Shown: positions 3,037 to 57,945 of the stretch, one piece after another
Position numbering within the stretch: position 1 is the first letter of the stretch
How the letters are laid out: each line of letters opens with the position of its first letter
Program-made: the position numbers and the translations under genes
IMG/VR virus record: IMGVR_UViG_3300022188_000009
Reading direction: 5' to 3' (one strand)
From: a virus
Taxonomy: Duplodnaviria > Heunggongvirae > Uroviricota > Caudoviricetes
DNA: 64,000 bases
Notes under the pieces: generated by a model
The model's input: the letters and a program-made list of their open reading frames with translations, nothing else
Database searches by the model: none
What the model was told of the DNA's origin: nothing

Positions 3037-3111
3037 AAGAGTGTAGATCAATGGTAGAGCATCAGTCTTTGATACTGGTGGTTATAGGTTCAAATCCTAT
3101 CATCCCTTCCA
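3037..3111 (+). tRNA. tRNA-Gln(UUG)-like gene with an encoded CCA end and a weak acceptor stem
   Basis: D-arm gatc/aatggta/gagc. Anticodon arm tcagt/cTTTGat/actgg, giving anticodon TTG. T-arm atagg/ttcaaat/cctat. The 3-prime end is catccct-t-cca. The acceptor stem pairs in only 5 of 7 positions and has two A-C mismatches. Confidence 0.5.
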
Positions 3112-25344: not shown

Positions 25345-26118
25345 ATGAAAACAACAAAGATTGACTGGGATACTAATAGTGCTCCTAAAAACTGTTACAC
25401 CAGCGATAGTATTCTATTTAGTTGGTTAACTACTCCAAAAAAGAATGTATTTCTGCAAGTCTCAAATTGGCATAGTTGTAGAGAGACTTTTATAACAGAA
25501 ATTCAACGTGCTTTAGGAATCACAGAATGGAGCTACATACGCAAGTTAAATTTACGTCGGATGAGGTTTGCAGTTATTCGTAATTATCCTAAAAAAGTAA
25601 CTAACTTTAAAAAGAAGACTAATTATGATATTATATGGATAAAAAACGCTAAACTAATTCTGAATTTATTTGAGAAACGCCTTGGTTGGGGGTTAACTAC
25701 AGTGTACAGAGTAGACCCTGAATGTGTTGGTGAAGATGCTAATGCCAATGTATTCGTATTTTCAGGATCTGTTAAATGGATGCGTTCTCCACAATTAATG
25801 TCCCTATATCTGTTGATTCTGCGTCTTAGTAAACACGCTCATTTTCAGAAAGTTAAAAGTATGGACGATTTGGGCGAATGGGTAAAAGAAAACAGGACTA
25901 AGGACCATCAAGATGCTGTATATTTAAAATATATTTATCCACACCTGTTTAATATATTGGATAATGTAGAATATCTTTTCTTTAAACGGTCTATGAAAAA
26001 GAATTTTGCTAAACAGGATGGATACAACGGCATTAATAATATGATTAACGGTATTGCTGATTATGTCACAAACTACAAATTAAATAAAATTAAAAAAAAA
26101 TGCAAAAAAAATGTTTAA
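25345..26118 (+). CDS. Member 1 of a five-gene paralogous family of unknown function (WHSCRETF and SPQLMSLYLLILRL motifs)
   Basis: Long segments of its DNA are identical to the gene at 26143..26907. Confidence 0.6.
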   Translation: MKTTKIDWDTNSAPKNCYTSDSILFSWLTTPKKNVFLQVSNWHSCRETFITEIQRALGITEWSYIRKLNLRRMRFAVIRNYPKKVTNFKKKTNYDIIWIKNAKLILNLFEKRLGWGLTTVYRVDPECVGEDANANVFVFSGSVKWMRSPQLMSLYLLILRLSKHAHFQKVKSMDDLGEWVKENRTKDHQDAVYLKYIYPHLFNILDNVEYLFFKRSMKKNFAKQDGYNGINNMINGIADYVTNYKLNKIKKKCKKNV

Positions 26119-26142: not shown

Positions 26143-26907
26143 ATGAAAATGACGAAGATTAACTGGATATCTGGATATAACCCTAAACATTGTTACACCA
26201 GCGATAGTATTCTATTTAGTTGGTTAACTACTCCAAAAAAGAATGTATTTCTGCAAGTCTCAAATTGGCATAGTTGTAGAGAAACTTTTGTGTCTGAAAT
26301 TCCACGTGCTTTAGGAGTTAAAAAATGGCGTTATTCACGTAAGTTAGATTTACGTCGAATGAGGTTTGCAGTTATCCGTAAGTATACCACAAAAGTAACT
26401 AACTTTAAAAAACATATAGATTATGACGTTAAATGGATGAAAAATGCAAAGCGTATTTTGAATTTATTCGAGAAATACCTTGGTTGGGGGTTAACTACAG
26501 TGTACAGAGTAGACCCTGAATGTGTTGGTGAAGATGCTAATGCCAATGTATTCGTATTTTCAGGATCTGTTAAATGGATGCGTTCTCCGCAATTAATGTC
26601 ATTATATTTACTGATTCTACGGCTTAGTCGACACTATCATTTTCAGAATATTAAAAGTATGGATGATTTTGATAAGTGGATGAAAAAGAATGTAAATAGG
26701 GTGGATACAGACACTATGTACCTGAAAGCAGTTTATCCATATCTATTTAGTATATTAGATAATGTAAAATATCTTTTCTTTGAGCGATCCATGAAGAAAA
26801 ATTTTACTAAACAAACCGGAAATCATGGTATTAATAACATGATTAAGGGTATTGCTGATGATGCTACTATAGTAAGGTTCAATAAAATCAAGAAAAGGGC
26901 AAAGTAA
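26143..26907 (+). CDS. Member 2 of the paralogous family, the tandem duplicate of member 1
   Basis: A stretch of about 110 nt at 26478 is identical to the stretch at 25680. A stretch of about 90 nt at 26197 is identical to that at 25398. Confidence 0.6.
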   Translation: MKMTKINWISGYNPKHCYTSDSILFSWLTTPKKNVFLQVSNWHSCRETFVSEIPRALGVKKWRYSRKLDLRRMRFAVIRKYTTKVTNFKKHIDYDVKWMKNAKRILNLFEKYLGWGLTTVYRVDPECVGEDANANVFVFSGSVKWMRSPQLMSLYLLILRLSRHYHFQNIKSMDDFDKWMKKNVNRVDTDTMYLKAVYPYLFSILDNVKYLFFERSMKKNFTKQTGNHGINNMIKGIADDATIVRFNKIKKRAK

Positions 26908-27467
26908 TGTTTAAATATATAATTTGTTTACTATTTTGTTTCTCAATGTTTACTGGTTGTGCAACTATTAAAATCGAGCATAAAGGTTTACCTGTAGCAA
27001 ATAATATTGTGCGAGCAAGTATTCTTAGTGGAAATATTGAGATGAGTTCTGCCCTCATCAGGTATTATGGTAAAATTGAGGGTGATGAAGTGTTGTTGAC
27101 TTATGAGTATATAAAACTTCGTTCTAAAGAAAAACATCTTATTTCATCGTATAATTTGAAGGGGTTATGTTATAAAGTACAAGTTTTCAACCCACGAAAA
27201 GTAGAATACCAAATGTTTGTTGAACGTTATTATTATGACGAAACCAAACGTAAACGTATAACGTATGAATTCAAATCAATCTATGCAGGAAACCTATCGA
27301 TGAAAGATTTCAATATAAGCCTGCCACTAGATAAAGGAAGTAATGGTTACGTTCAATTATTTGTTCATGATGAAGATGGGCTAATTATTTACCAAAGCCC
27401 TAAGGCTGGTTATGAGATTGGTGAAATTAAGAGGAGTCGAATAACTGGTGGTTATAAGTCAAAATAG
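26907..27467 (+). CDS. Lipoprotein
   Basis: Lipobox in LLFCFSMFTGC. Confidence 0.5.
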   Translation: MFKYIICLLFCFSMFTGCATIKIEHKGLPVANNIVRASILSGNIEMSSALIRYYGKIEGDEVLLTYEYIKLRSKEKHLISSYNLKGLCYKVQVFNPRKVEYQMFVERYYYDETKRKRITYEFKSIYAGNLSMKDFNISLPLDKGSNGYVQLFVHDEDGLIIYQSPKAGYEIGEIKRSRITGGYKSK

Positions 27468-27560
27468 AATGTTGTGATGTTGCATGAATCCATGCACAAA
27501 TTTATTTTTTTATTTATTTTATTTTATTTTTATTAATTTTTTTTCAAGGAGGTATTTTTT

Positions 27561-28004
27561 ATGAAGAGATCAACAATTGTTAGTTTAGTTGCAGCAGCAG
27601 TACTCGCATTTACCGGTATAGCTGGAGCAGGGCAGAATGCCCCGGAAGCTACAGTTAATAATGTTCCGAAAGCTCCAGTTAATGCACTTGCAGATAGTAA
27701 TGGTAATGCATACAATAATAATGAAGCACACATTGGTGCCTATAAATTTAATAATTCTGCCGAATTCAACATGGAAACAGTACATGCAGATCCAACAGGG
27801 AAGGTCAACTCCACAACAACCATCGGATTCACTGGGCCTGGTTTTGTTAAAGACACCCAGTCTGACCAGGGCACTGCAATTGCCAAATCTACCGGAAGTA
27901 TGACTGCAAATACAAATAATAATGTCTTCGGCAATGTCGATAATCCAACTAATAGAAATGAATATGATGTTGAGACTGAGCCTGGTCATTTGAAAAGTGG
28001 ATGA
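27561..28004 (+). CDS. Secreted N/G/T/A-rich protein. It is possibly the N-terminal part of a readthrough protein that continues into 28038..28748.
   Basis: Signal peptide MKRSTIVSLVAAAVLAFTGIAGA. RBS aaggagg. It is in the same frame as the next ORF, separated by a single TGA. Confidence 0.55.
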   Translation: MKRSTIVSLVAAAVLAFTGIAGAGQNAPEATVNNVPKAPVNALADSNGNAYNNNEAHIGAYKFNNSAEFNMETVHADPTGKVNSTTTIGFTGPGFVKDTQSDQGTAIAKSTGSMTANTNNNVFGNVDNPTNRNEYDVETEPGHLKSG

Positions 28005-28037
28005 AATAACGAAGGCGTTGGTAACCACAATTTTGAT

Positions 28038-28748
28038 ATGCATATTGATATGACGGCCGAACAGTATAATGGTGCATCTGCTCAAATAGGTTCTGGTTAT
28101 AACGCAACATGGGCCAGTGGAGATAATTTTACAGGCAGCAGTATTTTTGCCAATTACGGTGGCAAAGGTAATTTGGAAACATCGGAAGGCTGTGAAACTT
28201 ACTTTAATGAAAATCATCCGCCATATGGTGGTGATAGTTGGGATTATGATGGAAAAATAAAAGCTTCACTTACAGGTAATCTTAGTGCTGACGGAACCAC
28301 AGTAGCTAATGCAAGTAGAGAGCATAATGACAATAACGCATCCTCATACGCAACCGGCAAAACTTTAGGGGATTCTAACGCATCCGCTAACACTGCATTT
28401 TCTTCAATGAATGGTAATTCTTCAGAGTATGATTTTGATGCTACACTGCATGCTTTTGGTACGTGGGAGATTAAGCATCAAAGTTACGCTGCACTGCCAG
28501 ACAACACTGCAACAGCAATAACTTATGGGGCTGCTAAATTCGATTATAACAACACACAGTATGTTGAAGGCAATAACAATTGCTATGGCGGTATGGATAT
28601 TGGGATTAAAGGTGATGGATTTGCAAAAACAATTGGAAACTCTGATATCGATCGTACAGCTAACGCTTTTAATGTTACAAGTAAATCAATATCAAGAGCT
28701 TACTCTAACATGCCTGTAGGATATTCCAACAGTTGTTGTGAAGAATAA
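28038..28748 (+). CDS. N/G/S/T-rich protein with a Cys-rich C-terminus. It has no signal peptide of its own and is in frame with the upstream secreted ORF.
   Basis: The first ATG lies 33 nt after the TGA that ends the previous gene, in the same frame. There is no obvious RBS of its own. Confidence 0.5.
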   Translation: MHIDMTAEQYNGASAQIGSGYNATWASGDNFTGSSIFANYGGKGNLETSEGCETYFNENHPPYGGDSWDYDGKIKASLTGNLSADGTTVANASREHNDNNASSYATGKTLGDSNASANTAFSSMNGNSSEYDFDATLHAFGTWEIKHQSYAALPDNTATAITYGAAKFDYNNTQYVEGNNNCYGGMDIGIKGDGFAKTIGNSDIDRTANAFNVTSKSISRAYSNMPVGYSNSCCEE

Positions 28749-28777: not shown

Positions 28778-28808
28778 AAAGGGGCTGTGTAACAACAGCC
28801 CCTTTTTC
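28778..28808 (+). terminator. Strong rho-independent terminator
   Basis: The sequence aaaggggctg, loop tgtaacaa, cagcccc, then ttttt forms a perfect 7-10 bp GC-rich stem followed by a T-tract. Confidence 0.8.
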
Positions 28809-28845
28809 ATTACATTAAATTTTCATTTAGGAGGTACTCTTATTT

Positions 28846-29352
28846 ATGAAACGTTTATTTCTAATTTTTGCCCTTTGTCTGGTTCTTATAATACCAGGCA
28901 CGGCTCTTGCTATTGCTCCAGGTAGTACTATTCCAAATACTACTTCTGAGGCAGATTCAATAGCAGTCAATAATCTCAGCTTATATAATGAGGCTGCCGA
29001 TCTTAATACCGGCCGTGGATTTGCCATTCCAGGTGATACAATATTCCCAGGTACTCCAGGTTATTATGGAGAAGCTACCCCAGGTCACAGATTTATTCCA
29101 TTGAAAAAATTACTTATGTTTGTTACTGTATTGAACGCTAATAAAGCTGCCAATATGTTAACCGGTCGTACAGGAAGTGAAGATATACAGATACGTGATT
29201 TAATTGCCACAAAAGATGCAAATCCTACCAAATTGGTATATTGTTCTATTGTCAAGCCGGCCGCAGTAGGTGCCCATACAACAGAACAGGTTTCTATAGG
29301 GACCGTAGCTGCAAAAAATCGTAAATCAATCAGTGCAGACGTACTTGCTTAA
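28846..29352 (+). CDS. Secreted protein
   Basis: Signal peptide MKRLFLIFALCLVLIIPGTALA. RBS aggagg. Confidence 0.55.
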   Translation: MKRLFLIFALCLVLIIPGTALAIAPGSTIPNTTSEADSIAVNNLSLYNEAADLNTGRGFAIPGDTIFPGTPGYYGEATPGHRFIPLKKLLMFVTVLNANKAANMLTGRTGSEDIQIRDLIATKDANPTKLVYCSIVKPAAVGAHTTEQVSIGTVAAKNRKSISADVLA

Positions 29353-29391
29353 GCAATTGTTAATGTCAGCAAACGTGGTGCAAATTATATT

Positions 29392-29667
29392 ATGTTTATG
29401 GCCGAAGGTATTAATCGTGAAATTGATGCCCAGGGTTTCGGTATCGGATTTAATACAACACAGGCCCAGCTCCACTCCAGTGATAACTCCAAAGCCAACG
29501 TATCGACCTGTGGATTAGGCTATAGTCACGGATGGTCCGGTTACATTGATTACCCATGGTTACAGTTTACCTATCTGAAAGTTACCGGTATGGATCAGTT
29601 GGAAGTAGTTAATACACCAATCGAACTTTTGCAAAGCCATACCATTGAATCAAAAATAGATTACTAA
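29392..29667 (+). CDS. Hypothetical protein
   Basis: 91-codon ORF. Confidence 0.35.
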   Translation: MFMAEGINREIDAQGFGIGFNTTQAQLHSSDNSKANVSTCGLGYSHGWSGYIDYPWLQFTYLKVTGMDQLEVVNTPIELLQSHTIESKIDY

Positions 29668-29692
29668 TAACATTTTTCTTAATACGAATAAA

Positions 29693-29730
29693 AAGGGTAA
29701 ACTATTTTTTTAGCGGCTTACCCTTTTTTT
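29693..29730 (+). terminator. Putative terminator
   Basis: The stem aagggtaa / ttaccctt has a large loop and is followed by ttttttt. Confidence 0.4.
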
Positions 29731-29751: not shown

Positions 29752-30111
29752 ATGATCTGTACTATTTGTGGCAAAACTATAGAATCAGTAAATGTATGTG
29801 GTAAAAAGTACTATTGTCCTGTTTGCTACATAAAAGAATTTCCTCCTATATTAGCCCTTACTATACCGTGGGGGACACAAACCACTCTCTATAATCCTAA
29901 TACAAACACCTTTGAACTAAAAACAATCAGTCAATTACAATATTGTGGTTTTCACCTACTTTATCGTACAGTTTATTTTAGTGAAAAACTCAGTCTTTAC
30001 CATAAAGAATTTTTAACTTTTCATTATCGTGGTAATTTTCGATGCCGTAAAATTCGTGGTTACCTATGGCCGGCAGCTGTAAAACCCTGTACTAATACTA
30101 ATTGTGTTTAA
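29752..30111 (+). CDS. Cys-containing hypothetical protein
   Basis: The N-terminus carries a CTICGK...CPVC zinc ribbon. Confidence 0.4.
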   Translation: MICTICGKTIESVNVCGKKYYCPVCYIKEFPPILALTIPWGTQTTLYNPNTNTFELKTISQLQYCGFHLLYRTVYFSEKLSLYHKEFLTFHYRGNFRCRKIRGYLWPAAVKPCTNTNCV

Positions 30112-30126: not shown

Positions 30127-30837
30127 ATGGCAAACATTGCGACGAATAAACCCAAATATACTAAGCAAAACGGGACTTTTTCTGTTTTATTTAGTATAGT
30201 ATTCGGTATTATTATAGTTAGTGGATTTGTTTGTTGTTTGTACACTTACAAGCAGCATAATATAACACAGATCATTCTAAAAGAAATGACGGAATCTCAT
30301 AATGAAGCTTTAACTATACTCAATCAAAAAGTTGAGCAGGCTGAACGTGACAAAAAAGACTACTTAAAGAAAGTGGCTAACCCGTCAAAGAGAAACATTC
30401 AAGATATGAAAAATTATATCACTTTAAGATATTCCACCATTCCTGATGAGTTAGTATTAATCATTGCGGAAACAACGCAGAAAATAACTGAAAAACATGA
30501 CGTAGATTTTGGGTTGGTTGTTGGTCTCATGGAAGTAGAATCAGTATTTAATCCTTTTGCTAAAAGCAAAGCAGATGCTCGCGGTCTTCTTCAAATTATG
30601 TACAAAATTTGGGGTAAAACGTATGATATTAAACATCCATCCGATCTCCATAATATTGAATATAATGTCGATATAGGAGTTCATATACTTAAGCATTATT
30701 TGAAAAAGAATAATGGCAACATTCGCAATGCCTTGCAAAACTATAATGGGTCTGAAGGTACTGCCTTTTCTAATAAAGTATTCACTGCTTTAGGCAAATT
30801 TACAGCTTATAGAAATAACTCCTCAACGTGTGATTGA
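30127..30837 (+). CDS. Membrane-anchored lytic transglycosylase (SLT domain)
   Basis: An N-terminal transmembrane helix. The segment EVESVFNPFAKSKADARGLLQIM matches the SLT catalytic E-S...GLMQ motif. Confidence 0.65.
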   Translation: MANIATNKPKYTKQNGTFSVLFSIVFGIIIVSGFVCCLYTYKQHNITQIILKEMTESHNEALTILNQKVEQAERDKKDYLKKVANPSKRNIQDMKNYITLRYSTIPDELVLIIAETTQKITEKHDVDFGLVVGLMEVESVFNPFAKSKADARGLLQIMYKIWGKTYDIKHPSDLHNIEYNVDIGVHILKHYLKKNNGNIRNALQNYNGSEGTAFSNKVFTALGKFTAYRNNSSTCD

Positions 30838-30858: not shown

Positions 30859-32085
30859 ATGACTATTTTTACACCTCAATTAGAAATTCAGAAATTTTTA
30901 AACAGTTTTCAAAATTTAACAACGGCACAGGATCGCCTTAAACAATATTTTAAAATTGACATTAAACAGGATGTCATCACATTCTCTGACGGAAATACTG
31001 AACCAGTCTGGATTTATAATTATAACCTTTTCGAAGCTCGCGGAGAAAGTATAGTAGAAAACGAAGCACGTGCTTTGATTCTAAATAGACATAACGAAAT
31101 AGTAAGTTTTTCTTTTCCAAGATTTTTTAACCTAAATGAAAAAAATGCAGCTAATTTAGATTGGGAAACAACGGTATTAGAAACCAAATTTGACGGATCA
31201 CTTATTGTAGTTTACGGATACAAGGACGAGATATTTATTCAAACCAGACGCTCAGCTACAGCTAATGGTCAACTAAATAATATTGAAAACAAAACATATT
31301 ATGAAGCTGTCATGGATGTTCTTAAAGTAAAAAATCATAATTCTCCTCTTGCACCATTTATTGAAAATAAAAACTATATAAATAACTGTACTTGTGTTTT
31401 TGAATATGTTGGGCCAGATAATCGTCTAGTTACACCATATAATAAACCAGACCTTGTCTGTTTAGCAGTATTTAGGAAAGATTTTGCAGTTGAAATTGTA
31501 TCAAAACGTGTTGATTATTGGTGTGAAAAGTGTGGGTTTCTACGCCCAAAACGTTACGGAGGGTTCAAAGGTAGTGAAGACGCTATTGATTTTGTAAAAT
31601 TATCTTCGAAGCCTCTAGATGAGGGATTCGTTGCAGTTGATTATTATAATTGCCGGATAAAGATAAAAAACCCTGCATTTTTATCTATCTCAAGAGCTAT
31701 AAATGCGGGTAATTTGTTATTACCGAAACATTTCGCCAAAATAGTATTAAATGGTGATACTGAAGAAACAGTATCTTATTTTAGTGAATTCGCTAATATA
31801 CTATTACTGATGGATGGTACACTTGAAGAAATAATTGAAGAGTTGGATAATATATGGGAACTTAATAGAAACGCTAAGTCACTAAAAGAATTTGCTGAGG
31901 TAATAAAATACCACTCATTAAGCCATATATTATTTATGATCTGGAAAAATAAAATTAAAAATTTTGATGATATACTTCAATATATAAAACCTGAATTATT
32001 AGTTACAGAAACAAAGGAAAGACATAATGATTCATATAAAGCGGCTATTAAAGAGGCTGTCTATTCTAGAGGTCAAAAAACATGA
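30859..32085 (+). CDS. ATP-dependent RNA ligase, similar to T4 RnlA (Rnl1)
   Basis: RFFNLNEKNAANLDW matches T4 KFFNLNENP. TKFDGSLIVVY matches T4 motif I, KEDGSLVSTY. FEYVGPDNRLVTPY matches T4 FEFVAPTNRIVLAY. Confidence 0.75.
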   Translation: MTIFTPQLEIQKFLNSFQNLTTAQDRLKQYFKIDIKQDVITFSDGNTEPVWIYNYNLFEARGESIVENEARALILNRHNEIVSFSFPRFFNLNEKNAANLDWETTVLETKFDGSLIVVYGYKDEIFIQTRRSATANGQLNNIENKTYYEAVMDVLKVKNHNSPLAPFIENKNYINNCTCVFEYVGPDNRLVTPYNKPDLVCLAVFRKDFAVEIVSKRVDYWCEKCGFLRPKRYGGFKGSEDAIDFVKLSSKPLDEGFVAVDYYNCRIKIKNPAFLSISRAINAGNLLLPKHFAKIVLNGDTEETVSYFSEFANILLLMDGTLEEIIEELDNIWELNRNAKSLKEFAEVIKYHSLSHILFMIWKNKIKNFDDILQYIKPELLVTETKERHNDSYKAAIKEAVYSRGQKT

Positions 32086-32128
32086 CTTAAAAGTTTCTGA
32101 ATATTTAAAGAGGAGAAGAAAAGAAAAA

Positions 32129-32935
32129 ATGGCTAGAAAAAAAATAGTAACAGTTGAATGGTTTAAAAGTGTAAATAAATTATGTGAATCTTATCAACAA
32201 ACAGGAATGGCTTTTGCTTTCGTAACAAGCCAAAAAGATGGAAATAAAATGTGTCATGAATGGGTAAAATGTAGAGATTTCTTACATGATGGTGTTCGCA
32301 CACAAATCACTGGTATACCATGTGAAATTTATGGATTTAAATTTAATACAAAAACAAATCCAAACATTTATCTTTACAAAATGCGTATGCTTGTAACAAA
32401 ATACAATTTAAAGACCACTGCTGATACAAAATTGTTTAATAAAAAAATAGTATCGGGTCTTAAATTAATTAATCATTTTGAAAAACAAGCTAAAGTTTCT
32501 CTGACTAAAGTACATAAAGTTGATACAAAAGATTCAGGAAAAGAGTCAATATTTATGTTCATAGGTCCAGCTATGTGGGTACATTCACCGTTTTTAGTGT
32601 CTATGTATACGTTCTTAATTCGTCTTGGGGATAAACAGATAAAATTCAAAAACGCCAATAGTCTTAAAAAAGAATTAAAAAGACTGAATACTAAATATAC
32701 AAAAGATGAATTATTAGATAATGATGCTGAATATCTAGGATGCTTGTGGGATAAATTACATATAATTATTAAAAATCGTGCTAAATTATTCACAAAGAAG
32801 AATAAAATGCATGATATTTATAGTGATGACATAAGTATAAATAATTTTCATAATAGATGCGGAATACGCAGTCTGGCAATGGGAACAACCCCAAACAACG
32901 AGCTTAATGAATGTATTAAGGAGATTTGTAAGTAA
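32129..32935 (+). CDS. Member 3 of the paralogous family
   Basis: VTSQKDGNKMCHEWVKCRDF...MWVHSPFLVSMYTFLIRL matches the family motifs. Start at MARKK, with the RBS aagaggag. Confidence 0.5.
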   Translation: MARKKIVTVEWFKSVNKLCESYQQTGMAFAFVTSQKDGNKMCHEWVKCRDFLHDGVRTQITGIPCEIYGFKFNTKTNPNIYLYKMRMLVTKYNLKTTADTKLFNKKIVSGLKLINHFEKQAKVSLTKVHKVDTKDSGKESIFMFIGPAMWVHSPFLVSMYTFLIRLGDKQIKFKNANSLKKELKRLNTKYTKDELLDNDAEYLGCLWDKLHIIIKNRAKLFTKKNKMHDIYSDDISINNFHNRCGIRSLAMGTTPNNELNECIKEICK

Positions 32936-33783
32936 TGACACAAAATGAAACAGTATCTGAAAAAACAGAAAAGAAAAAGTTAATTAGGGTGCATAATCGT
33001 TCTAAAAACGGTACAACTTATAAAGACAATTATAAATACTCATCAATCAACTTCGCATTTGTATCCAATCCAGAAAATGGTAGGAAACAGGCAACTAACT
33101 TAGTGACATGCCGCGAATATGTTAATCGTGTAGCATTAGGAGCAGCTACAGGTACTGGTGATCCTAACCATGACGTAAACAGTGACGCACCAATTGATTT
33201 TGATAGATTACGCCTTCTTATAGTGCATGATCCAGATGGCTGGGAGGAGTTTAGAACTAAACTATTTAATGGTAAAGCCTGTCTTAATTTACTTGAAAAG
33301 GTAAATAAATGGAAACCAAGTACGATTACTACAGTTAAACACGATACATATGACCATGCGTGGTTGTTAACTGGACCAAAAGAGTGGATGAGTCAGCCAC
33401 AACTTCTTTCTTTAGCAACTTGGATATTAAGACTTGCAGCTGTTGAAGGGCCAATCGAAACAACAAATTTTGATGTTTTTGAAGATGATTTGAAAAAACG
33501 CATAAATATTAACAATAGCCATGATTCCGGCCTATATTTAAATAATTTTTGGGACAAACTGTACATTTTGACTAAATATCATGATCAGATTTGGGAAGGT
33601 GTTGATGAAAAGAAAGCCTGGACCGATGTAGATCCTAGCAGTTTTGGTATTTATAGTGGGTTACTGAATTTTGTATCAAAAACTCCTAAATACTCTAATT
33701 GTGTTAGGATTACGCAAAAAAGATTTCTTGGCCTGTGCAAAGAACATTTGCCACGTAAAAAGAAACAGACTAAAGAAGATTAA
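32935..33783 (+). CDS. Member 4 of the paralogous family
   Basis: Carries the motifs LVTCREYV and EWMSQPQLLSLATWILRL. Confidence 0.5.
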   Translation: MTQNETVSEKTEKKKLIRVHNRSKNGTTYKDNYKYSSINFAFVSNPENGRKQATNLVTCREYVNRVALGAATGTGDPNHDVNSDAPIDFDRLRLLIVHDPDGWEEFRTKLFNGKACLNLLEKVNKWKPSTITTVKHDTYDHAWLLTGPKEWMSQPQLLSLATWILRLAAVEGPIETTNFDVFEDDLKKRININNSHDSGLYLNNFWDKLYILTKYHDQIWEGVDEKKAWTDVDPSSFGIYSGLLNFVSKTPKYSNCVRITQKRFLGLCKEHLPRKKKQTKED

Positions 33784-42350: not shown

Positions 42351-45300
42351 ATGCAGGATACATTCAATTCGAGCAGAGTTCAACACCTAGTTAATACTAT
42401 TTTTACTCAATTTCGCTCAAGAACAGAAACTGAAGGACGGAAGAGCGGTGTAGATTTTGGAATCACACTTGATTTAAATATTGATTCAGATAATATACTT
42501 TGGCTTAAGTTTGCTAAAGGCAATGAATCACACAGTATCACTATACCAATGCCGTTTATAGAAAACAGTATAGAGTTTGTTCAGCAGAATGAAGTTTTAA
42601 GAGCTACTTGCCCATTCTGGTTGGAAGAAGAACAACGTGAGTTGGACTATTTTGGTGCTGTTTCTCAGGTCATACTTGGAACTCCAAGTGGGCTGATATC
42701 TGACGATTTAATCAAAGCTACTCCATATCTACAACGGGTTATATACGGCTTCAAGAATGATAATGCTTCGATAATTATTTATAACTTTCAACAGGCAATT
42801 AACGAAATAGTTCATAAAATGCCTCTACATGAAACAATGATGAATAGTTTCGTAATGAATAACAGACTGATGGTTGTTGACAAAGACTTTGATGAACTTA
42901 CAAGTCCTACACAACGCCTTGAGTATCAGGTAAACAAAGCTAAGAAATATTTCAATATTGGTTGGACATCGATAGGTCTGTCAGACGGGGCACTGGCAGA
43001 TAAGAATTATATCCTTAAGAAAGACTTACGTAATCTATCACCATTCGGTATACGATATCATAATCCTCAACGTAATCTGTATTCCACACTTGGGATGAAA
43101 GGTGATGAGTATTCAATTATTAGTTCACAGACATCCAAAGAACTTGCAGACAAGAATATTACTCGTAAAGGGTGGAATTTATTCTCAGCTTTTGTTGATA
43201 TTCCTGATATCTTTGAAGATCAAATAATGGTTGACAACTCTCACCTTGACAAGTTTGTAACATATGAACGCAGATACCAAGTATTCGGTATACTTCATAT
43301 AAAAGAAAATCAGACAATTAAAACAAATGACATTTTGGGCACTTCACCTGATCAGGAAAATATAATCTTCGATACAGTATGTGACAGTGCTCGTGTTATT
43401 AAAATTGTCGAATCTTCAGTATCAGTTGGTGGAGCTTTAACTAAAGTGTATAATGTTATTGTTTCCTATTGTCGTAACTTTCGTGACGGTGTTAAAATTA
43501 CTAACATGCATGGTAATAAAGGAGTCATTCGGATGGCTGACTTAGGCTATGCCGTTGATCCAAGAACAGGTCAGAAAAGGAAAATTGACGTAATTATTGG
43601 GGCAAAAACTGTTGGCAAAAGACGTAACTATGGACAGATTCTTGAGGCACTCACTAACTGTATTCTGGAAGCAGACGCTTCTTCTAGTACTGTATATATA
43701 GATTCAGAAACAGTTGAAATTCCTAAAGTTAATCCTATAGTTATTGCTGATGATTGGTATCAACCAAATGAGCAGATTGAAGCTGGATTAGAGAAGCGTG
43801 GGTTCAGACGTGATGGTACGTGGGATTGTGATACTTATGCTGGTAAAGTTAAAGCTATATGTGGTAATATTTTCTGGGGAGTAATTAAAACTCCAGAAGA
43901 TCAAGTATGGAAACCCAATGCTACAACTAACCGTAATGGTAAAGGGGTCCGCACAGCAGGCTTAAAGCTGTCTCATATCGAGTTTATGTCAATAGAAACC
44001 CGTTTTGGTGCTAACAGTGCTCTTATGGATGAAATCATGTCATACTCACAAGGCTCAGCAAATTTGCATGATGTATTGAGTATGATGCGTGCTAAAATTG
44101 GTACAGTACCAACCGATAAACCAGTGCTTGATTTACAAAGTATTATACCAGTAAACCAACAGGGTAGTACTATTATACCTGGACAATTCATCGGAGGAAC
44201 TATTGTTGATGAATTCTTTCATCCTGATGGTTTTGTATTTCAACTGCCATTACCTTATATGACTCTTGTTGATAGTGATGGAGAAACATTTGAAGGCTCT
44301 CCTTTATCATTCGACCAGATGACTGTTGCTGAGAAAGCAAAATATAAAAAGCAATTCGTCACTGATAAACTATATATCCCTAATGGGACGCTTAGAAAAT
44401 GTTGGAGGCATGCTACAGGAAAATATGGTTTGAGTGAGATCGGTGTATTAGTTAATAATGTAACAGTTATGGCACGAAGACTTGTAGAAGACCCACAGAA
44501 TGCAATTCACCACAGATTATATTATAGTACGTTATATACATATTTTAATAAGCTGAGTAAAATACTTGGTACAAAACGTGGTGAAATATCAACATATGGT
44601 ATGGGTATCAGATATCCATTTTCTGTTAAAGCTATTGCATGCCTGTCTACAACGCTGCCTAAAAACACAGTAGAAATTCATCGTAGTATGGCAGAAGTAA
44701 TGAAAGTCAAAAATAATGATGTTGTTTTGGCTGAAAGATTTCCATGTTTAGGATTTATGTCCGTACGTCCTCAGAAAGTACGAATTACTGATGATCCTAT
44801 GTGTAAATACGTTATTAGAGTGAGTGGTAATAGTTTAGTAAGTCAGAATCTTGATTTTGATGGCGATGTTCTATTCTTAGCAGCATTTCATACGCCGGCA
44901 GCGAAAACAGAATTACTTCGTGAATGGACAAACCCTGATAAGACGTGTTACAAGTTCATTAAAGAACTCAATGAACGAAAAGGAGCTCCCCATATTAAGG
45001 AGTTCACGTTTAAAGACTTTGATATTAAACCATTTGCAGACATGACTAATGAGGAACATGCAATTATAGTGGAGAAGAACACTGGGGTAAAAGCTCAAAC
45101 TGGCTCAGTTATTGCGTTAACTTATAATATTATGCGTATGGTTGAAAATTCTGATTTAGCTAAAGACCATAAAACGAAAGTTTCTATAGAGATGTTCTTG
45201 GAAAAAGCAGCTCAATCTGTATTCGAACAGAAGCATGGAGGCAGATCTCTTTATGAAATAGTTACCGAAGGTGTGTGTACTTCTGATGTTGAAATGCTAG

Positions 45301-45776
45301 TTGAAGTTGGTTTCAAAAGAGGTGTTACTGAAAAATTATGTACTTTAATTAAAGAACGTGCATCCACTTTAGGTATTTTTGACCTGGTTAAGTTTCATCA
45401 GGACTCGAAAAAGTTTGGAGGTGGCAATATCATAAATAAGGTTATTCGTGAATACCATCATATATATTTTGCAAGTCGTGCTTGCCTTGAAGGTACTGCA
45501 CTGCTTGAGGCATTAGATTATGATGCTGTAGATATTCCAAGTAGAATGTTCAAACGTATAATTGCAGGAAAAAATGAGAAAATACATACAGAGCTGGATA
45601 AAGTATTGAATGAAGCACAAGCTAATCAAATTAATGATAACAAATTGAAGAAAGCTGTTACAGACATATGCGAGATCTTTGATATAGCTATGAGCTGTAA
45701 GTCTATGGGTATACTGCCTAAAACAGGCAGTAAACTACGTGCAGCTCCAAAAACCGTTATAGGTGGAGGTTTCTGA
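42351..45776 (+). CDS. Large (1141 aa) protein similar to the RNA polymerase beta-prime subunit, carrying a double-psi beta-barrel catalytic motif
   Basis: VSQNLDFDGDVLFLAAFH matches the universally conserved NADFDGD metal-binding motif of multisubunit RNAP beta-prime. It is also related to RdRP/YonO-like polymerases. RBS aaagggg. Confidence 0.5.
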   Translation: MQDTFNSSRVQHLVNTIFTQFRSRTETEGRKSGVDFGITLDLNIDSDNILWLKFAKGNESHSITIPMPFIENSIEFVQQNEVLRATCPFWLEEEQRELDYFGAVSQVILGTPSGLISDDLIKATPYLQRVIYGFKNDNASIIIYNFQQAINEIVHKMPLHETMMNSFVMNNRLMVVDKDFDELTSPTQRLEYQVNKAKKYFNIGWTSIGLSDGALADKNYILKKDLRNLSPFGIRYHNPQRNLYSTLGMKGDEYSIISSQTSKELADKNITRKGWNLFSAFVDIPDIFEDQIMVDNSHLDKFVTYERRYQVFGILHIKENQTIKTNDILGTSPDQENIIFDTVCDSARVIKIVESSVSVGGALTKVYNVIVSYCRNFRDGVKITNMHGNKGVIRMADLGYAVDPRTGQKRKIDVIIGAKTVGKRRNYGQILEALTNCILEADASSSTVYIDSETVEIPKVNPIVIADDWYQPNEQIEAGLEKRGFRRDGTWDCDTYAGKVKAICGNIFWGVIKTPEDQVWKPNATTNRNGKGVRTAGLKLSHIEFMSIETRFGANSALMDEIMSYSQGSANLHDVLSMMRAKIGTVPTDKPVLDLQSIIPVNQQGSTIIPGQFIGGTIVDEFFHPDGFVFQLPLPYMTLVDSDGETFEGSPLSFDQMTVAEKAKYKKQFVTDKLYIPNGTLRKCWRHATGKYGLSEIGVLVNNVTVMARRLVEDPQNAIHHRLYYSTLYTYFNKLSKILGTKRGEISTYGMGIRYPFSVKAIACLSTTLPKNTVEIHRSMAEVMKVKNNDVVLAERFPCLGFMSVRPQKVRITDDPMCKYVIRVSGNSLVSQNLDFDGDVLFLAAFHTPAAKTELLREWTNPDKTCYKFIKELNERKGAPHIKEFTFKDFDIKPFADMTNEEHAIIVEKNTGVKAQTGSVIALTYNIMRMVENSDLAKDHKTKVSIEMFLEKAAQSVFEQKHGGRSLYEIVTEGVCTSDVEMLVEVGFKRGVTEKLCTLIKERASTLGIFDLVKFHQDSKKFGGGNIINKVIREYHHIYFASRACLEGTALLEALDYDAVDIPSRMFKRIIAGKNEKIHTELDKVLNEAQANQINDNKLKKAVTDICEIFDIAMSCKSMGILPKTGSKLRAAPKTVIGGGF

Positions 45777-49097: not shown

Positions 49098-50261
49098 ATG
49101 GAACTGAGTATAAAAATTTCTGCTACTATGAATAAGGAATCAGATTGGAACGATTTTTATGAACATCGTATTATCCGATTGCCTGCAGATGCTAGATCAA
49201 AATATAATTTACAGATTGAAGATTTTCTCTATCTGAGGAATAAATTTGGTGGGTATATAACCCTACAGATAGCAGAGGCATTTAAAGAGGATGTTGAAAG
49301 AAATCATCTATGTGGTTACGTAACTGCCACGAATTATGATAAATTATTTATTAAATCCCAAGATACTAATGAAGTCCAACAAGTGAGGGATATAACCCTC
49401 GGCTGTGACCCAGAAGCTTTTTTAGTTGATACTACAACCGGTAACATTATCGCAGCTCATCGATTTATGAAAAAATACGGGGATGTTGGACACGATGGTA
49501 TGTTACTTGAATTCAGACCATTACCATCAACCAGTGAAAATGTAGTTACAGCAAATATTGCAAATTTAATAATGAAAGCAAGAAAAATACTTAATGAGAG
49601 CACTGAGGGGCTTAAATACACGATGGTTGGTGCTTCCTCATGTCACGGCCTAGCTGCAGGTTTTCATCTCCATTACGGGCTTCCTGCAGGCCTTCTTGGA
49701 CGTAGACCAGCTGTGTCTAATATCGCTAAATTAATGACCAAAGCATTTGATTATTATATAGGTATTCCATCTATTATACCTGAAGGAAATGAAGACACCA
49801 GTAGACGAACGATGCAATTTGTTGAATATGGGAAGCCTGGTGGATACCGTTTAGATAATCGTACCTTTGAATATAGATTGCCTGGTGGTATAAATTTGAG
49901 GCATCCTTGTTTAACAAGAGGGCTTATGGCTCTGGGGGCCGTTGTTGTGGAGGACTTAGTTAGTAGGATACATACAAGTACTGATTACTTCTCAAATTTG
50001 AAAGAGGTGGCCACGGATGAGGATTTAAAAACTATTTATCCGAGATTACCTGTTATTGAGACACTTTATTCGGTAATCTGTAATCCTGATATCGGTCCTG
50101 CGAAAGCACATTTTGATGTTATAAAGGAAGATATACGAAAAATGATCGGTTACAGTGAACGTGCAGCATCAGTTGAATCTTATTTTACGTGTTTGGATCA
50201 TGGTATCCAGTATGATTCTAATCTTGAAGCAAATTGGGGAGGTTTTAATGAGAAACAGTAA
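49098..50261 (+). CDS. Carboxylate-amine ligase (GCS2/GS-like amidoligase), copy 2
   Basis: Carries ITLGCDPEAFLVD, and HGLAAGFHLHYG as the HxH motif. RBS gggggg. Confidence 0.55.
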   Translation: MELSIKISATMNKESDWNDFYEHRIIRLPADARSKYNLQIEDFLYLRNKFGGYITLQIAEAFKEDVERNHLCGYVTATNYDKLFIKSQDTNEVQQVRDITLGCDPEAFLVDTTTGNIIAAHRFMKKYGDVGHDGMLLEFRPLPSTSENVVTANIANLIMKARKILNESTEGLKYTMVGASSCHGLAAGFHLHYGLPAGLLGRRPAVSNIAKLMTKAFDYYIGIPSIIPEGNEDTSRRTMQFVEYGKPGGYRLDNRTFEYRLPGGINLRHPCLTRGLMALGAVVVEDLVSRIHTSTDYFSNLKEVATDEDLKTIYPRLPVIETLYSVICNPDIGPAKAHFDVIKEDIRKMIGYSERAASVESYFTCLDHGIQYDSNLEANWGGFNEKQ

Positions 50262-51936
50262 AGACAAGTGGTCGTTTTATAATCTACCATCACGACCAGA
50301 CTTGAATGCTGGAGAAATTATGTATTGGAAGAATACTCTTAAGAAAATTCTAAAGATTGGCTTAGAGTTTGAATATAATCTCCCAGAAAAGAAAAACGGG
50401 TCCTGTAAAGGTGATAGTACTACATGCCCGTGTGTAAATTTAACGCCTGAAAATGACTGTTGGCAACAATGTATTAATACAGAAGCATGCAACTTAATTA
50501 AACCAAATTTAGAGCTGTGTGATAATGTTACAGGTACATGTGAACCAGAAGACTGTAATACATGTGCTCACTTTACTCCGCATTGTAACGGAATATTTTG
50601 CCCTAATTTTGTTAGTTATTGCTTTGCATGCTCTGATTTTCGTAATGATTGTAAAAACTGTAAGTATAAGTATGATCCAAATCGTAATCCAGAAAATATT
50701 CGAAAACATATGATTAATGAATTAAAACCTAACAATACTTACGGTCAGGTTAGCCCAACAGGCGTTCACAGTATAGTAACTGATGGTTCCTTACTTGGTA
50801 AACGTGGGGCAGAAATTATTACTGTTGGTCGACGTGTAGATTATTGGGAATTTTATCGAATGGCTGAAAACATCATCAGTCTATCAACTAAACGTGGTGC
50901 GTACTTAAATGAAAGATGTAGCATCCACATGCACGCCTTAGCCAGTTACTATGGCAAGGTAGTTCCTGGGCAGGAAAAACTCAGTGTTCCAACTCGTGTA
51001 AATGAAATGGAGCGTGATATGCCCGAAATTATTTTAGCAAATTTACACCAGTTAGTTAGGCGTTACCAAAATGCTATGACATGGATGGTAATGGGCCTGT
51101 CAGAACAACACAGAATGACAAGATGGGAAAAATTTAGAGTTAGTGTACTCCCAGTTAGTGCTGTTATGAATCATATGTGTGAAGTACAGCAAAAAGTTGC
51201 CTCTAACGCAGGGGGGAATAAGTATGGATGGATTAATTATAGTAATATTGAATTTTCACCAACTGGCGATGTTAGTAGATTCCATGTAGAGTTTAGAGCA
51301 GCAGACGGTCTTAATTCTCCAAGTGCTGTTGCAGCTATTGCTTGTATGTACTATGCTCTTGTTATTAAAGCAGTAGAGATAAGTCGTTACGGTGTTGTGG
51401 AAATTGGCGGAGATAACTGGACAAAACAAGCAGATACAGTAAAGAAAGTATTACTGAATAATATGAGTTCGTATAATGAAGGTGATCGTTTTGGAGATAC
51501 TTCCAAACTTCACAAATATTATAATATTCTTATTGGTGAGTCGCTTGATTTGGTACGACAGTTGAAATCTATATTGATTAAGATTGGGCCTGCTTTTGAA
51601 GTACTTGAAAAATTGGCAGAACGCCCCTGTGCTTTACGCCTTGTTGATGGCCAAACCTGGGAACGTATTGAAGACGACCTAAAAGTCATCGTTAATAAAG
51701 AAGGTATGTTTGAATTAACTGTTAGTGAGATTATTACACTTAACCAAGTATCTGAGTGTCGTGATATAGATGAATGGGTTGGAGTTATTGGTCAGATTTT
51801 GCGTAATGACCCTGAATTAAATATTGATCCGGATAATGTGGAAGTCGAAGATACTATAAAAAGTTTCGTAATTAAAAAACAAGAAGAGGGTGAGTTGGTG
51901 TGGTCAAAGAACATCGGAGCCCCTATACTTATTTAA
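50248..51936 (+). CDS. GS-like amidoligase (GxExE type) with an approximately 90-aa Cys-rich insertion (about 20 Cys)
   Basis: IGLEFEYNLP matches the GxExE N-terminal strand motif of GS/GCS2-like ligases. ERCSIHMHALAS is the HxH motif. Start at MRNSK, with the RBS ggggagg. Confidence 0.45.
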   Translation: MRNSKDKWSFYNLPSRPDLNAGEIMYWKNTLKKILKIGLEFEYNLPEKKNGSCKGDSTTCPCVNLTPENDCWQQCINTEACNLIKPNLELCDNVTGTCEPEDCNTCAHFTPHCNGIFCPNFVSYCFACSDFRNDCKNCKYKYDPNRNPENIRKHMINELKPNNTYGQVSPTGVHSIVTDGSLLGKRGAEIITVGRRVDYWEFYRMAENIISLSTKRGAYLNERCSIHMHALASYYGKVVPGQEKLSVPTRVNEMERDMPEIILANLHQLVRRYQNAMTWMVMGLSEQHRMTRWEKFRVSVLPVSAVMNHMCEVQQKVASNAGGNKYGWINYSNIEFSPTGDVSRFHVEFRAADGLNSPSAVAAIACMYYALVIKAVEISRYGVVEIGGDNWTKQADTVKKVLLNNMSSYNEGDRFGDTSKLHKYYNILIGESLDLVRQLKSILIKIGPAFEVLEKLAERPCALRLVDGQTWERIEDDLKVIVNKEGMFELTVSEIITLNQVSECRDIDEWVGVIGQILRNDPELNIDPDNVEVEDTIKSFVIKKQEEGELVWSKNIGAPILI

Positions 51937-51945
51937 GAGGTGCTT

Positions 51946-52767
51946 ATGTGTGCTATTTTTGGAGTAGGATTTCAACGAGGTTGTAAAATATGTAATAATG
52001 AGATGGTACGGGAGATTATCCGTAATTTATTTCTTGAAAATATGGTAAGGGGCCGGACAGCTTCTGGCCTCGCCTATGTTTCAGGTAAAGAAATTCAAGT
52101 AATTAAGAAGAATACTGCTGCTTGTGATTTTATTCAGTTACCTGACTATAAAAAATCAAATCTTACATATTTAAAAATGTCGAATTCTGAAGATTCTATA
52201 AATTCAGAACATCGACCTGTTTCGGTACTTGGACATTGCAGATTAAAAACGAAAGGGACAGAACTTAATAATGTCAACAATCACCCAATTATAAGAGATA
52301 ATATAGTTGGAGTGCATAACGGTATGATTAGTAATGATGACTACTTATTTGACCATTATTCAGATAAATTCAAGCGTAACGGAAAAGTCGATAGTGAGAT
52401 TATATTTGCATTAATTGAGCATTATTCTGGCAATAACGGGACAATAGTTGAAGCCATTCAGAAAGCAAATCAAGAGATCTACGGAGGATTTGCCTGTGCC
52501 ATGGTACATAGATTTCAACCATACATTGTGTGGTTATTTAGAAACAGCAATCCATGTTCTATTTTTCATTACAAAGATAGTGGCCTTGTAATCTGGTCAT
52601 CAATGCCACAGTTTATAAGGTCGGCAACAAAAGGATATACTTTAGGGGAACCAGAAGAAATTGAATTTCCTGCAGAGACTGGAATTGCAATTGATCTATA
52701 TCAGAATAAATTTTACAGGTTCAAATTAAAGGACCAAGGAAAAGAAACTAATGCAGGAGTTCACTAA
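51946..52767 (+). CDS. Class-II (Ntn) glutamine amidotransferase, copy 1
   Basis: N-terminal MCAIFG, whose Cys would be exposed after Met removal. Also RGRTASGLA, HCRLKTKG...NNHP and VDSEII. RBS agaggtg. Confidence 0.6.
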   Translation: MCAIFGVGFQRGCKICNNEMVREIIRNLFLENMVRGRTASGLAYVSGKEIQVIKKNTAACDFIQLPDYKKSNLTYLKMSNSEDSINSEHRPVSVLGHCRLKTKGTELNNVNNHPIIRDNIVGVHNGMISNDDYLFDHYSDKFKRNGKVDSEIIFALIEHYSGNNGTIVEAIQKANQEIYGGFACAMVHRFQPYIVWLFRNSNPCSIFHYKDSGLVIWSSMPQFIRSATKGYTLGEPEEIEFPAETGIAIDLYQNKFYRFKLKDQGKETNAGVH

Positions 52768-53734: not shown

Positions 53735-53756
53735 AATAAAGGTTAGGAGGTAACCC

Positions 53757-55763: not shown

Positions 55764-55776
55764 GAGGATATAGTTT

Positions 55777-57069: not shown

Positions 57070-57090
57070 TAAAAGGATTAAATAAAACAA

Positions 57091-57891: not shown

Positions 57892-57945
57892 TTGCACCAG
57901 AAAAAAGTATCTTATAGTTTTTAAGAAATAAGGAGAAATGTAAAA

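Follow-up and report, generated by a model that had tools for sequence, protein, structure and literature searches.

In-frame stop codons in two adjacent genes for predicted secreted proteins of a phage

Two stop-interrupted genes at the locus

The window analyzed here is a stretch of 64,000 nucleotides (64 kb) from a Caudoviricetes phage, part of a contig of 86.7 kb. It carries two neighboring genes, called gene 1 (27561..28748) and gene 2 (28846..29667), each crossed by one in-frame stop codon. The features of the locus are as follows.

26907..27467, + strand: upstream syntenic gene for a predicted lipoprotein (lipobox FTGC), with tblastn hits from contigs L012, L013, L014, L024, and L025
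27546..27552, + strand: Shine-Dalgarno sequence (SD) of gene 1, AAGGAGG, from sequence reading and an SD scan
27561..28001, + strand: N-terminal part of gene 1, 147 codons, with a signal peptide and an N/G/T/A-rich region
28002..28004, + strand: in-frame TGA of gene 1, inside a single BLASTP segment against protein P0002 of contig L009
28005..28748, + strand: C-terminal part of gene 1, 247 codons plus TAA, lacking its own SD and signal peptide
28778..28805, + strand: intrinsic terminator, hairpin plus U-run, after the end of full-length gene 1 (fold -19.7 kcal/mol, z -5.7)
28829..28835, + strand: SD of gene 2, AGGAGGT, from sequence reading and an SD scan
28846..29349, + strand: N-terminal part of gene 2, 168 codons, with a signal peptide and the conserved motif GRGFAIPG..FPGTPGYxGEATPGHRFIPL
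29350..29352, + strand: in-frame TAA of gene 2, which is GAA (Glu) in contig L010
29353..29667, + strand: C-terminal part of gene 2, 104 codons and a TAA, matching the C-terminal halves of homologous proteins of 239 to 294 aa
29690..29728, + strand: terminator-like hairpin plus U-run after the end of full-length gene 2 (fold z -2.2)
29752..30111, + strand: downstream syntenic gene for a Cys-rich, zinc-ribbon-like protein
30127..30837, + strand: downstream syntenic gene for an SLT lytic transglycosylase with an N-terminal transmembrane segment (Pfam PF01464 on an identical product; transmembrane core 3.23)

Gene 1 starts with the ATG at 27561, preceded by its SD (27546-27552), and its N-terminus contains the hydrophobic core IVSLVAAAVLAF, with a mean Kyte-Doolittle hydropathy of 2.82. 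After the TGA, the frame runs on without a stop from 28005 until the TAA at 28746-28748. This stretch of 247 codons is still coding-like and contains no frameshift. The earliest ATGs in this part, at 28038 and 28050, have an SD match of 3 nt at most, while the SD scan gave a match of at least 4 nt at about 70% of the other starts of the window. No hydrophobic N-terminus was found in the post-TGA part, where the hydropathy over 12 residues reaches 0.3 at most. Both parts are rich in A, G, N, T, and S and poor in K, L, I, and R, and among the 67 other proteins of the window, the first open reading frame (ORF) is the nearest in composition to the second. No internal repeats were found between the two halves. 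These observations confirm what a first-pass annotation of the same DNA had described: an ORF at 27561..28004 with a signal peptide, the AAGGAGG and a terminal TGA, followed in the same frame by a second ORF of the same unusual composition that lacks both an SD and a signal peptide. Gene callers annotate the two pieces separately, as proteins of 147 aa and of 232 or 236 aa.

The TGA is no assembly artifact: contigs from at least seven samples and three assembly pipelines agree with the window at 100% identity in all overlaps, which also makes the sequencing error raised by the first-pass annotation as a possible refutation very improbable. The contigs of all the samples represent one clone and carry no population information.

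Homologs and genomic context

P0002, a metagenomic protein of 458 aa encoded on contig L009 by a single ORF with a signal peptide, was found by exhaustive HMMER search only; a word-indexed search of 5.8 billion proteins with the fused gene 1 returned only the window's own second ORF. The read-through translation of gene 1 matches P0002 in one BLASTP segment (residues 31-391 against 65-453; E = 2e-47), and its N-terminal residues 31-131 align with residues 65-169 (E = 3e-12). The residue aligned with the TGA is a Lys, and the stop sits in a linker that joins two conserved blocks and is itself poorly conserved and variable in length (19 residues, compared with 32 in P0002). Counterparts of gene 1 are uninterrupted in eight related contig groups (L009, L012, L013, L014/15, L017, L024, and L025-27), each being a single ORF of 284 to 458 aa with a signal peptide; the TGA site is covered in this comparison by a distant homolog (35% identity) and by positional counterparts, since the contigs of the nearest relative (L010/L016) begin downstream of it. 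At the level of sequence, the homology across the stop shows that the ORFs at 27561..28004 and 28038..28748 are halves of one gene of about 395 codons, the single unit that the first-pass annotation had thought plausible.

The arrangement of the frames would not have sufficed for this. Two ORFs in one frame with a single intervening stop are found 8 times in the window, whose genes are tightly packed, and 6 of these cases are ordinary gene boundaries, so the split of gene 1 draws its significance from homology and not from the frame. That the pieces are truly separate genes with their own starts, as the separate gene calls would have it, is extremely improbable. The match to P0002 begins at post-TGA residue 3, nine codons 5' of the ATG at 28038, meaning that homology to a single protein crosses the stop and begins upstream of both candidate ATGs. 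Moreover, the second part lacks an SD and a signal peptide although the family is secreted, and in all related loci the counterparts are single ORFs, rather than the pairs of genes with independent ribosome binding sites that the first-pass annotation had named as evidence against a single unit.

The best explanation of the gene 1 product is a protein of about 395 aa that is secreted, evolves fast, and contains much Asn, Gly, Thr, and Ala. The gene is hypervariable (omega of 0.69), and an AlphaFold model built from an alignment of 3 sequences was unusable (pLDDT of 33). A diversity-generating retroelement was considered as the source of the hypervariability or of the stop and rejected, as neither gene 1 nor gene 2 has a template-like repeat anywhere in the window.

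The first-pass annotation had seen no need for recoding in any other gene of the window, which turned out to be wrong: the adjacent ORF at 28846..29352 ends at an in-frame TAA, and the homology of gene 2 runs on past it to 29664. At least 20 homologous protein clusters (239 to 294 aa) cover both halves of gene 2 across the stop, and the closest relative, L010 (85.5% nucleotide identity), has GAA at this position, a single base away from TAA. As in gene 1, the part after the stop has neither a frameshift nor a second stop (104 codons). The most conserved motif of the family precedes the TAA, and so does an invariant Trp that the window copy lacks. In the predicted structure, an alpha/beta core spans approximately residues 67-236 of the homolog P0004, which would place the TAA in the middle of the domain, at about residue 150. 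Gene 2 is best explained as the conserved partner of gene 1, coding for a periplasmic-type protein of about 270 aa.

The two genes keep their company across related loci. A gene 2 homolog lies directly downstream of the gene 1 homolog in L009 and L010, and in L012, L013, L014/15, L017, L024, and L025-27 the order is the gene 1 counterpart, gene 2, and then, as far as each contig reaches, the SLT, a peptide deformylase, and Rnl1. Among the approximately 15 genes common to the window and these loci, only gene 1 and gene 2 are crossed by a stop. The best explanation of this synteny is a conserved module of a large-phage lineage composed of the lipoprotein, gene 1, gene 2, the zinc-ribbon protein, and the membrane-anchored SLT transglycosylase. 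Scans of both halves and their homologs against Pfam, PHROGs, and NCBIfam gave no significant family. No match was found among INPHARED phages by blastn and tblastn, in IMG/VR with either half, the Rnl1 neighbor, or gene 2 alignments, or in GTDB genomes. The module, in which a hypervariable secreted protein and a conserved periplasmic-type protein of 240 to 290 aa have a lipoprotein gene on one side and a membrane-anchored SLT on the other, was previously unannotated. One relative occupies a contig of 330 kb.

Stop codon usage and signals for recoding

TGA ends 12 of the 68 ORFs of the window (18%) and TAA 48 of them; the TGA terminators include those at 7248 and 11021, where stop and start overlap as ATGA. 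When + strand ORFs of 100 aa or more are counted, code 11 gives a total of 17,995 aa and code 4 one of 18,658 aa, which is 3.7% more. An in-frame TGA backed by homology was found in only one gene of the window. Stop usage and ORF totals rule out genome-wide use of code 4, 15, or 25. Genome-wide recoding is therefore excluded for the 64-kb window, which bears out the first-pass annotation on this point.

The transcription signals fit the full-length genes, since strong hairpin-plus-U terminators are found after 28748 and 29667 and none follows either premature stop. Neither stop is followed by RNA structure beyond that of shuffled sequence (z of +0.7 to +1.0); the folds at 27990-28090 (z of +0.73) and 28002-28045 (-2.9 kcal/mol; z of +0.96) were no better than shuffled ones. 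No suppressor tRNA, such as one with the anticodon UCA, was found by Rfam and ARAGORN in 71 kb of the 86.7-kb contig (the window plus 7.2 kb), where the only tRNAs are a tRNA-Gln(UUG) and a tRNA-Tyr(GUA), the latter outside the window by 5 kb. No ORF resembles a release factor. These results leave a negligible probability to the idea that the TGA encodes selenocysteine or that the stop arose from an error of sequencing or assembly. The in-frame UGA, a feature shared with bacterial selenoprotein genes, is all that speaks for it. In those genes the UGA is followed by a SECIS hairpin, whereas the window has no such hairpin after the UGA, no Rfam hit, and no visible sel genes, and P0002 carries a Lys and not a Cys at the aligned residue; an error is at odds with the identity of the sequence across samples and pipelines.

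The two stops could also be functional, kept to delay or limit the synthesis of envelope-acting proteins and passed by suppressor tRNAs, of the phage or of the host, or through leakiness of the context. We consider such suppression or programmed readthrough improbable. It would account for downstream parts that are wholly open and still coding-like, and the broken genes adjoin a lipoprotein gene and the SLT with its membrane anchor, a neighborhood that could be related to lysis; in phages, recoded stops occur preferentially in lysis genes and structural genes (Borges et al., bioRxiv 10.1101/2021.08.26.457843). The genome is AT-rich and carries tRNA genes and tRNA-repair enzymes. The 71 kb examined belong to an incomplete genome, and suppressor tRNAs occur in only 35 to 40% of recoded phages (Borges et al., bioRxiv 10.1101/2021.08.26.457843). 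Nevertheless, two different stop codons would require two suppressors, one of them for TAA, the main terminator of the window, and the phage recodings described by Borges et al. (bioRxiv 10.1101/2021.08.26.457843) are TAG to Gln and TGA to Trp only, with no reassignment of TAA. The coding gain under code 4 is below the criterion of a 10% gain in coding density for contigs of 5 to 100 kb (bioRxiv 10.1101/2021.08.26.457843), and TGA is not depleted as a terminator. Since no counterpart of gene 1 is interrupted, no stimulatory structure follows the stop, and no suppressor tRNA was seen in the 71 kb, the site-specific programmed readthrough listed by the first-pass annotation among its options is not supported; the GAA of L010 argues in the same direction for gene 2.

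In phage Qbeta, whose stop is conserved and whose extended product is essential, the leaky stop context is a UGA followed by an A, as in gene 1. The tRNA-Trp misreads this UGA at the end of the coat gene at a rate of approximately 1/15, and the extended product, A1, is a minor coat protein (PMC8067240). Gene 1 resembles this system in its in-frame UGA about 440 nt from the start and in a same-frame extension with no start signals of its own. It differs in that its homolog and positional counterparts are free of stops, its neighbor has an unrelated TAA, and a long form is not evidenced. Phages recoded under code 4 (TGA to Trp) or code 15 (TAG to Gln) share with the window phage a large, AT-rich genome with its own tRNAs and stops near a putative lysis enzyme. 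Yet they show many in-frame copies of one stop in late genes, a coding gain above 5 to 10%, depletion of the stop as a terminator, and often suppressor tRNAs, unlike the window with its two stops of two kinds. It is very improbable that the TGA and the TAA form a deliberate brake on an envelope-targeted, possibly lysis-associated two-gene module, with late suppressor tRNAs encoded elsewhere in a probably very large genome. If true, this would amount to incipient, module-restricted stop-codon recoding using two different stops.

Probable inactivation of the two-gene module

The explanation we favor, and hold to be likely, is that recent lineage-specific nonsense mutations inactivated a two-gene module of secreted proteins. 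The linked neighbor has a different stop, TAA, and the closest relative has GAA in its place, suggesting decay of the module rather than a recoding device. A recent nonsense mutation was one of three options listed by the first-pass annotation and is the best supported of them. In this phage lineage, the TGA at 28002 would have cut gene 1, and a second, independent nonsense codon, the TAA at 29350, would have cut gene 2. Ribosomes would then initiate at the strong SD and ATG of each gene and terminate at the premature stop, giving secreted truncated fragments of 147 aa (gene 1) and 168 aa (gene 2) before cleavage of the signal peptide. The downstream parts, having neither an SD nor a signal peptide, would probably have no useful independent expression. 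Traces of full-length gene 1 product may arise only through background leakiness of the UGA, read by near-cognate tRNA-Trp. We infer that function was lost, that the loss is recent, and that the truncated products are the sole significant ones.

Patterns of substitution give a hint, in sequence comparisons, that constraint may be relaxed in the lineage of the window. At gene 2 columns where 14 or more of 15 homologs agree, the window copy has 5 changes (W to L, K to E, A to V, S to A, and G to C) and L010 only 1, a weak difference (one-sided p ~0.11). In the C-terminal part of gene 1, 25 residues are unique to the window and 12 to L010 (chi-square of 4.6; p ~0.03), in a gene that is hypervariable anyway. 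After the stop of gene 2, dN/dS against L010 is low (0.15), implying that the inactivation is very recent (an estimated 1 to 2% of neutral divergence or less) or else that translation of the downstream parts continues.

Counter to inactivation, neither gene shows any lesion beyond its single stop.

A shortening of the genes with function kept is unlikely, if somewhat less so than the other alternatives. The secreted N-terminal fragments (after cleavage, approximately 123 aa for gene 1 and 146 aa for gene 2) would be the selected products, and the downstream parts would be dead or re-initiated at the ATG at 28038 or 29392. Both fragments retain a strong SD, an ATG, and a signal peptide, the TGA falls in the variable linker of gene 1, and the fragment of gene 2 includes the most conserved motif. 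At least seven samples yielded this genotype, but these are one clone, so that its repeated recovery says little. Moreover, the predicted alpha/beta domain of gene 2 would be split midway by the TAA, both of its halves are kept in all homologs, and the invariant Trp missing from the window copy lies upstream of the stop.

A loss of function by nonsense mutation would bring the two genes close to the nonsense pseudogenes and natural knockouts of accessory genes in phages and bacteria. The resemblance lies in one premature stop in an otherwise intact ORF, intact orthologs, a gene 2 stop one base away from a sense codon, a hint of relaxed constraint, and no recoding machinery found. Here, however, two adjacent linked genes were hit together with no other lesion, and they belong to an uncharacterized secreted family, so that their loss of function is a probable reading of the sequence. 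The finding is most likely an ordinary one. It carries a caution, since a stop between ORFs of matched composition mimics recoding, and it was homologs and synteny that pointed to a nonsense-broken gene and to a second broken neighbor. If the module is indeed inactivated, the window phage would be a natural double knockout of it, suggesting that the phage can do without the module in at least some circumstances.

Two nonsense hits in adjacent genes and none elsewhere are a non-random pattern, which fits a functional coupling of the two genes and would also fit a module-specific device.

Homology across the gene 1 TGA

Sequence comparison indicates that ORF1 and the open frame after its TGA (ORF2) are one gene, here gene 1, with the following features.

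Features of gene 1, as read from the sequence (the terminator with its folding scores)
27546-27552, + strand: Shine-Dalgarno (SD) sequence AAGGAGG
27561 (ATG) to 28002-28004 (TGA), + strand: ORF1, 147 codons
Post-TGA open frame to the TAA at 28746, + strand: 247 codons
28778-28805, + strand: strong hairpin-plus-U terminator after full-length gene 1 (-19.7 kcal/mol, z -5.7)

The first-pass annotation had described ORF1 as a gene with a ribosome-binding site, a signal peptide and a TGA end, and ORF2 as a frame-sharing ORF of the same unusual composition without a ribosome-binding site or signal peptide of its own. Both descriptions were confirmed. The N-terminus of ORF1, MKRSTIVSLVAAAVLAFTGIAGA, contains a hydrophobic core typical of signal peptides (mean hydropathy, 2.82), while the hydropathy scan of the post-TGA part revealed no hydrophobic N-terminus. 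The candidate ORF2 start codons (ATG at 28038 and 28050) are preceded by SD matches of at most 3 nt, compared with at least 4 nt for about 70% of the other starts in the window. Both ORFs are high in A/G/N/T/S and low in K/L/I/R, and ORF1 is the nearest neighbor of ORF2 by composition among the 67 other proteins of the window. The frame relationship alone means little, since the window has 8 pairs of long same-frame segments with one stop between them, 6 of which are ordinary gene junctions.

Neither half of gene 1 matched Pfam, PHROGs, INPHARED, or IMG/VR. When the post-TGA translation was searched exhaustively with HMMER, one distant homolog emerged: P0002, a 458-aa protein encoded on a short metagenomic contig (L009; GC about 50%) by one uninterrupted ORF that has an SD and a signal peptide of its own. 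ORF1 matches residues 65-169 of P0002 (E 3e-12), and the post-TGA translation matches residues 202-453 from its third residue onward (E 7e-38), so that homology begins nine codons 5' of the first candidate ORF2 ATG. With the stop masked, BLASTP gave one segment covering window residues 31-391 (E 2e-47). The single protein proposed earlier is thus upheld as an ancestral gene; readthrough as the route to it is not supported. The TGA lies in a poorly conserved, length-variable stretch, where the aligned P0002 residue is Lys.

An assembly error was excluded (the first-pass annotation had named a sequencing error as a possible refutation): at least seven samples in Logan, ENA, and JGI assemblies contain the exact 147-aa product and its flanking DNA, and their overlaps with the window add up to tens of kilobases, all of it 100% identical. 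The samples therefore represent one clone, with no population diversity to exploit.

A second interrupted gene and its relatives

The earlier statement that no other gene of the window needs recoding proved wrong, and this changed the reading of gene 1. The L009 gene 3' of P0002 is a homolog of window positions 28846..29352, the 5' part of the neighboring gene 2. Its 168-aa product retrieved 20 homologous clusters, 19 of them of 239-294 aa and spanning the window stop; the remaining one (P0023, 100 aa) is the L009 copy, cut by the contig end. The window copy is short because of an in-frame TAA, after which the extension aligns over its full length to the C-terminal halves of the homologs. At 85.5% nucleotide identity to the window, L010 (identical to L016) is the closest relative; it has GAA at this codon, which implies a single G->T change.

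Features of gene 2
28846-29667, + strand: gene 2 at full length
29350-29352, + strand: in-frame TAA (frame translation and homologs)
Post-TAA extension to 29664, + strand: 104 codons (aligned with homologs)
29690-29728, + strand: terminator-like hairpin plus U-run after full-length gene 2 (z -2.2)

Contigs with gene 2 homologs share a gene order: a ~270-aa protein, a ~185-aa lipoprotein, the gene 1 counterpart, gene 2, a zinc-ribbon gene, a membrane-anchored lytic transglycosylase (SLT), in some cases a peptide deformylase, a T4-type RNA ligase (Rnl1), and COOH-NH2 ligase and GATase genes. The gene 1 counterparts (L009, L012, L013, L014/15, L017, L024, and L025-27) are uninterrupted single ORFs of 284-458 aa, all of which have a signal peptide and share the unusual composition. 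Homology to window gene 1 is demonstrable for L009 and L010 only, the other loci forming a second, weakly linked subfamily. When all ORFs of the related loci were compared with the window by tblastn (~15 shared genes), a stop was crossed only in genes 1 and 2.

Gene 1 is hypervariable (window versus L010: dN 0.45, dS 0.66, omega 0.69), and gene 2 shows much stronger conservation (dN about 0.06). The variability of gene 1 suggests that its protein could take part in an interaction shaped by an evolutionary arms race. Both proteins may act in the host cell envelope, since both genes have signal peptides and are flanked by the lipoprotein gene and the membrane-anchored SLT. The AlphaFold model of gene 2 was mediocre (pLDDT 60; 10-residue blocks of the core, residues ~67-236, average 53-90, most of those as far as ~170 at 70-90) and that of gene 1 unusable. 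The two genes constitute a new, uncharacterized, conserved phage gene pair.

One related locus (L025) carries tandem gene 1 paralogs (878-1852 and 1958-2968; 324 and 336 aa) whose signal peptides are 95% identical and whose mature parts are unrelated in sequence, which fits cassette-like diversification of the secreted protein. No gene 1 or gene 2 repeat usable as a DGR template was found in the window. Four related phages (L011-L014) have the peptide deformylase gene between SLT and Rnl1; the window lacks it there (SLT ends at 30837, Rnl1 starts at 30859). In L010 (about 1700-2026), the zinc-ribbon gene 3' of gene 2 is truncated, and the end motif of the following ORF, CSACGAQHDRDINAAKVI, resembles by eye the C-terminal zinc finger of TnpB/IS605 OrfB, which would suggest an IS insertion.

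Probable loss versus readthrough or recoding

Most simply, two nonsense mutations, independent of each other, would recently have knocked out a module of two secreted-protein genes. Once one partner was lost, or the module became dispensable, the other would be free to decay, and the adjacency of the two stops would follow from functional coupling of the genes. Of the options offered by the first-pass annotation, a pseudogene is the best explanation, given the intact counterparts and the second nonsense-broken gene next door. Translation would yield truncated secreted fragments, and ordinary UGA leakiness could add traces of the full-length protein from gene 1; that the N-terminal fragments retain function seems unlikely. 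The interrupted genes are an ordinary phenomenon.

Programmed readthrough, also proposed initially, is not supported in the form known from Qbeta A1, where UGA is decoded as Trp at a rate of about 1/15 (PMC8067240). The gene 1 stop is absent in every counterpart, folding revealed no RNA structure 3' of the TGA or the TAA better than shuffled controls, and the neighboring gene has a TAA that is absent in the closest relative.

Recoded phages carry one stop codon in frame at many sites in their late genes, gain more than 5-10% in coding density, and usually deplete that stop as a terminator; the surveyed recodings are TAG->Gln and TGA->Trp only, never TAA (Borges et al., 10.1101/2021.08.26.457843). 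The window shows none of the first three traits, and recoding of genes 1 and 2 is not supported. Its 68 ORFs end in TAA (48), TGA (12, some in ATGA overlaps), or TAG (8), and reading TGA as sense raises the ORF total by only 3.7%. The genetic code is standard, as the first reading, which saw no genome-wide reassignment, had held. No release-factor-like ORF was found in the window, and the proposed search for a suppressor tRNA yielded only tRNA-Gln(UUG) in the window and tRNA-Tyr(GUA) about 5 kb past its end on the same contig. A suppressor-dependent brake on a candidate lysis-associated module is very improbable, keeping a small residual probability because the genome is incomplete.

Gene 2 has acquired 5 substitutions in the window lineage, one of them at an invariant Trp, and 1 in L010 at columns shared by at least 14 of 15 homologs. 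The post-TGA part of gene 1 has 25 unique residues in the window versus 12 in L010 (three-way comparison with L009; chi-square 4.6, p about 0.03). These counts are weak and lean toward relaxed constraint in the window lineage. Against this count the post-stop parts of both genes, which have no further stop or frameshift, and the gene 2 post-stop dN/dS of 0.15 versus L010. As a rough estimate, zero extra lesions in about 1,050 nt would limit the neutral period to about 1-2% divergence or less, also the level at which one stop per gene would be expected.

Genomic surroundings

The window appears to be a piece of a large phage genome. Its genes (GC about 33%) all lie on one strand, and they encode a helicase, an RNA polymerase beta-like protein, an Rnl1 RNA ligase, a CCA-adding enzyme, COOH-NH2 ligases, and amidotransferases. 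Because the contig of a syntenic relative reaches 330 kb (L012; JGI 3300071178, Ga0613763_0052; 329,815 bp), the window phage, whose longest contig measures 86.7 kb, could be one of a group of related huge phages, most of its genome then being unseen.

An RNA-related set comprises the two tRNAs, Gln(UUG) and Tyr(GUA), both with standard anticodons, the T4 Rnl1-type ligase, a CCA-adding enzyme with an HD domain, and a faint TROVE/Ro-like protein (window 3037-3111, 30859-32085, and 62485-63927; contig L021 16048-17667 and 18942-19026). The set resembles a kit for the repair or maintenance of tRNA. Genes for COOH-NH2 ligases, glutamine amidotransferases, RimK/S6-glutaminyl-transferase-like proteins, and acetyltransferases form a dense cluster (49098-59049) that is conserved in the relatives. 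Paralogous proteins of ~255-300 aa without a Pfam match have at least five copies in the window (25345-26118, 26143-26907, 32027-32935, 32935-33783, and 57091-57891), the first two being a tandem duplicate with 82% nucleotide identity, and are also multicopy in related phages. A 1141-aa protein (42351-45776) weakly matches RNA polymerase beta-subunit PHROGs, and a 291-aa protein on a contig identical to the window (61196-62101 in window positions) weakly matches Sigma70_r2; together they may represent phage-encoded transcription machinery.
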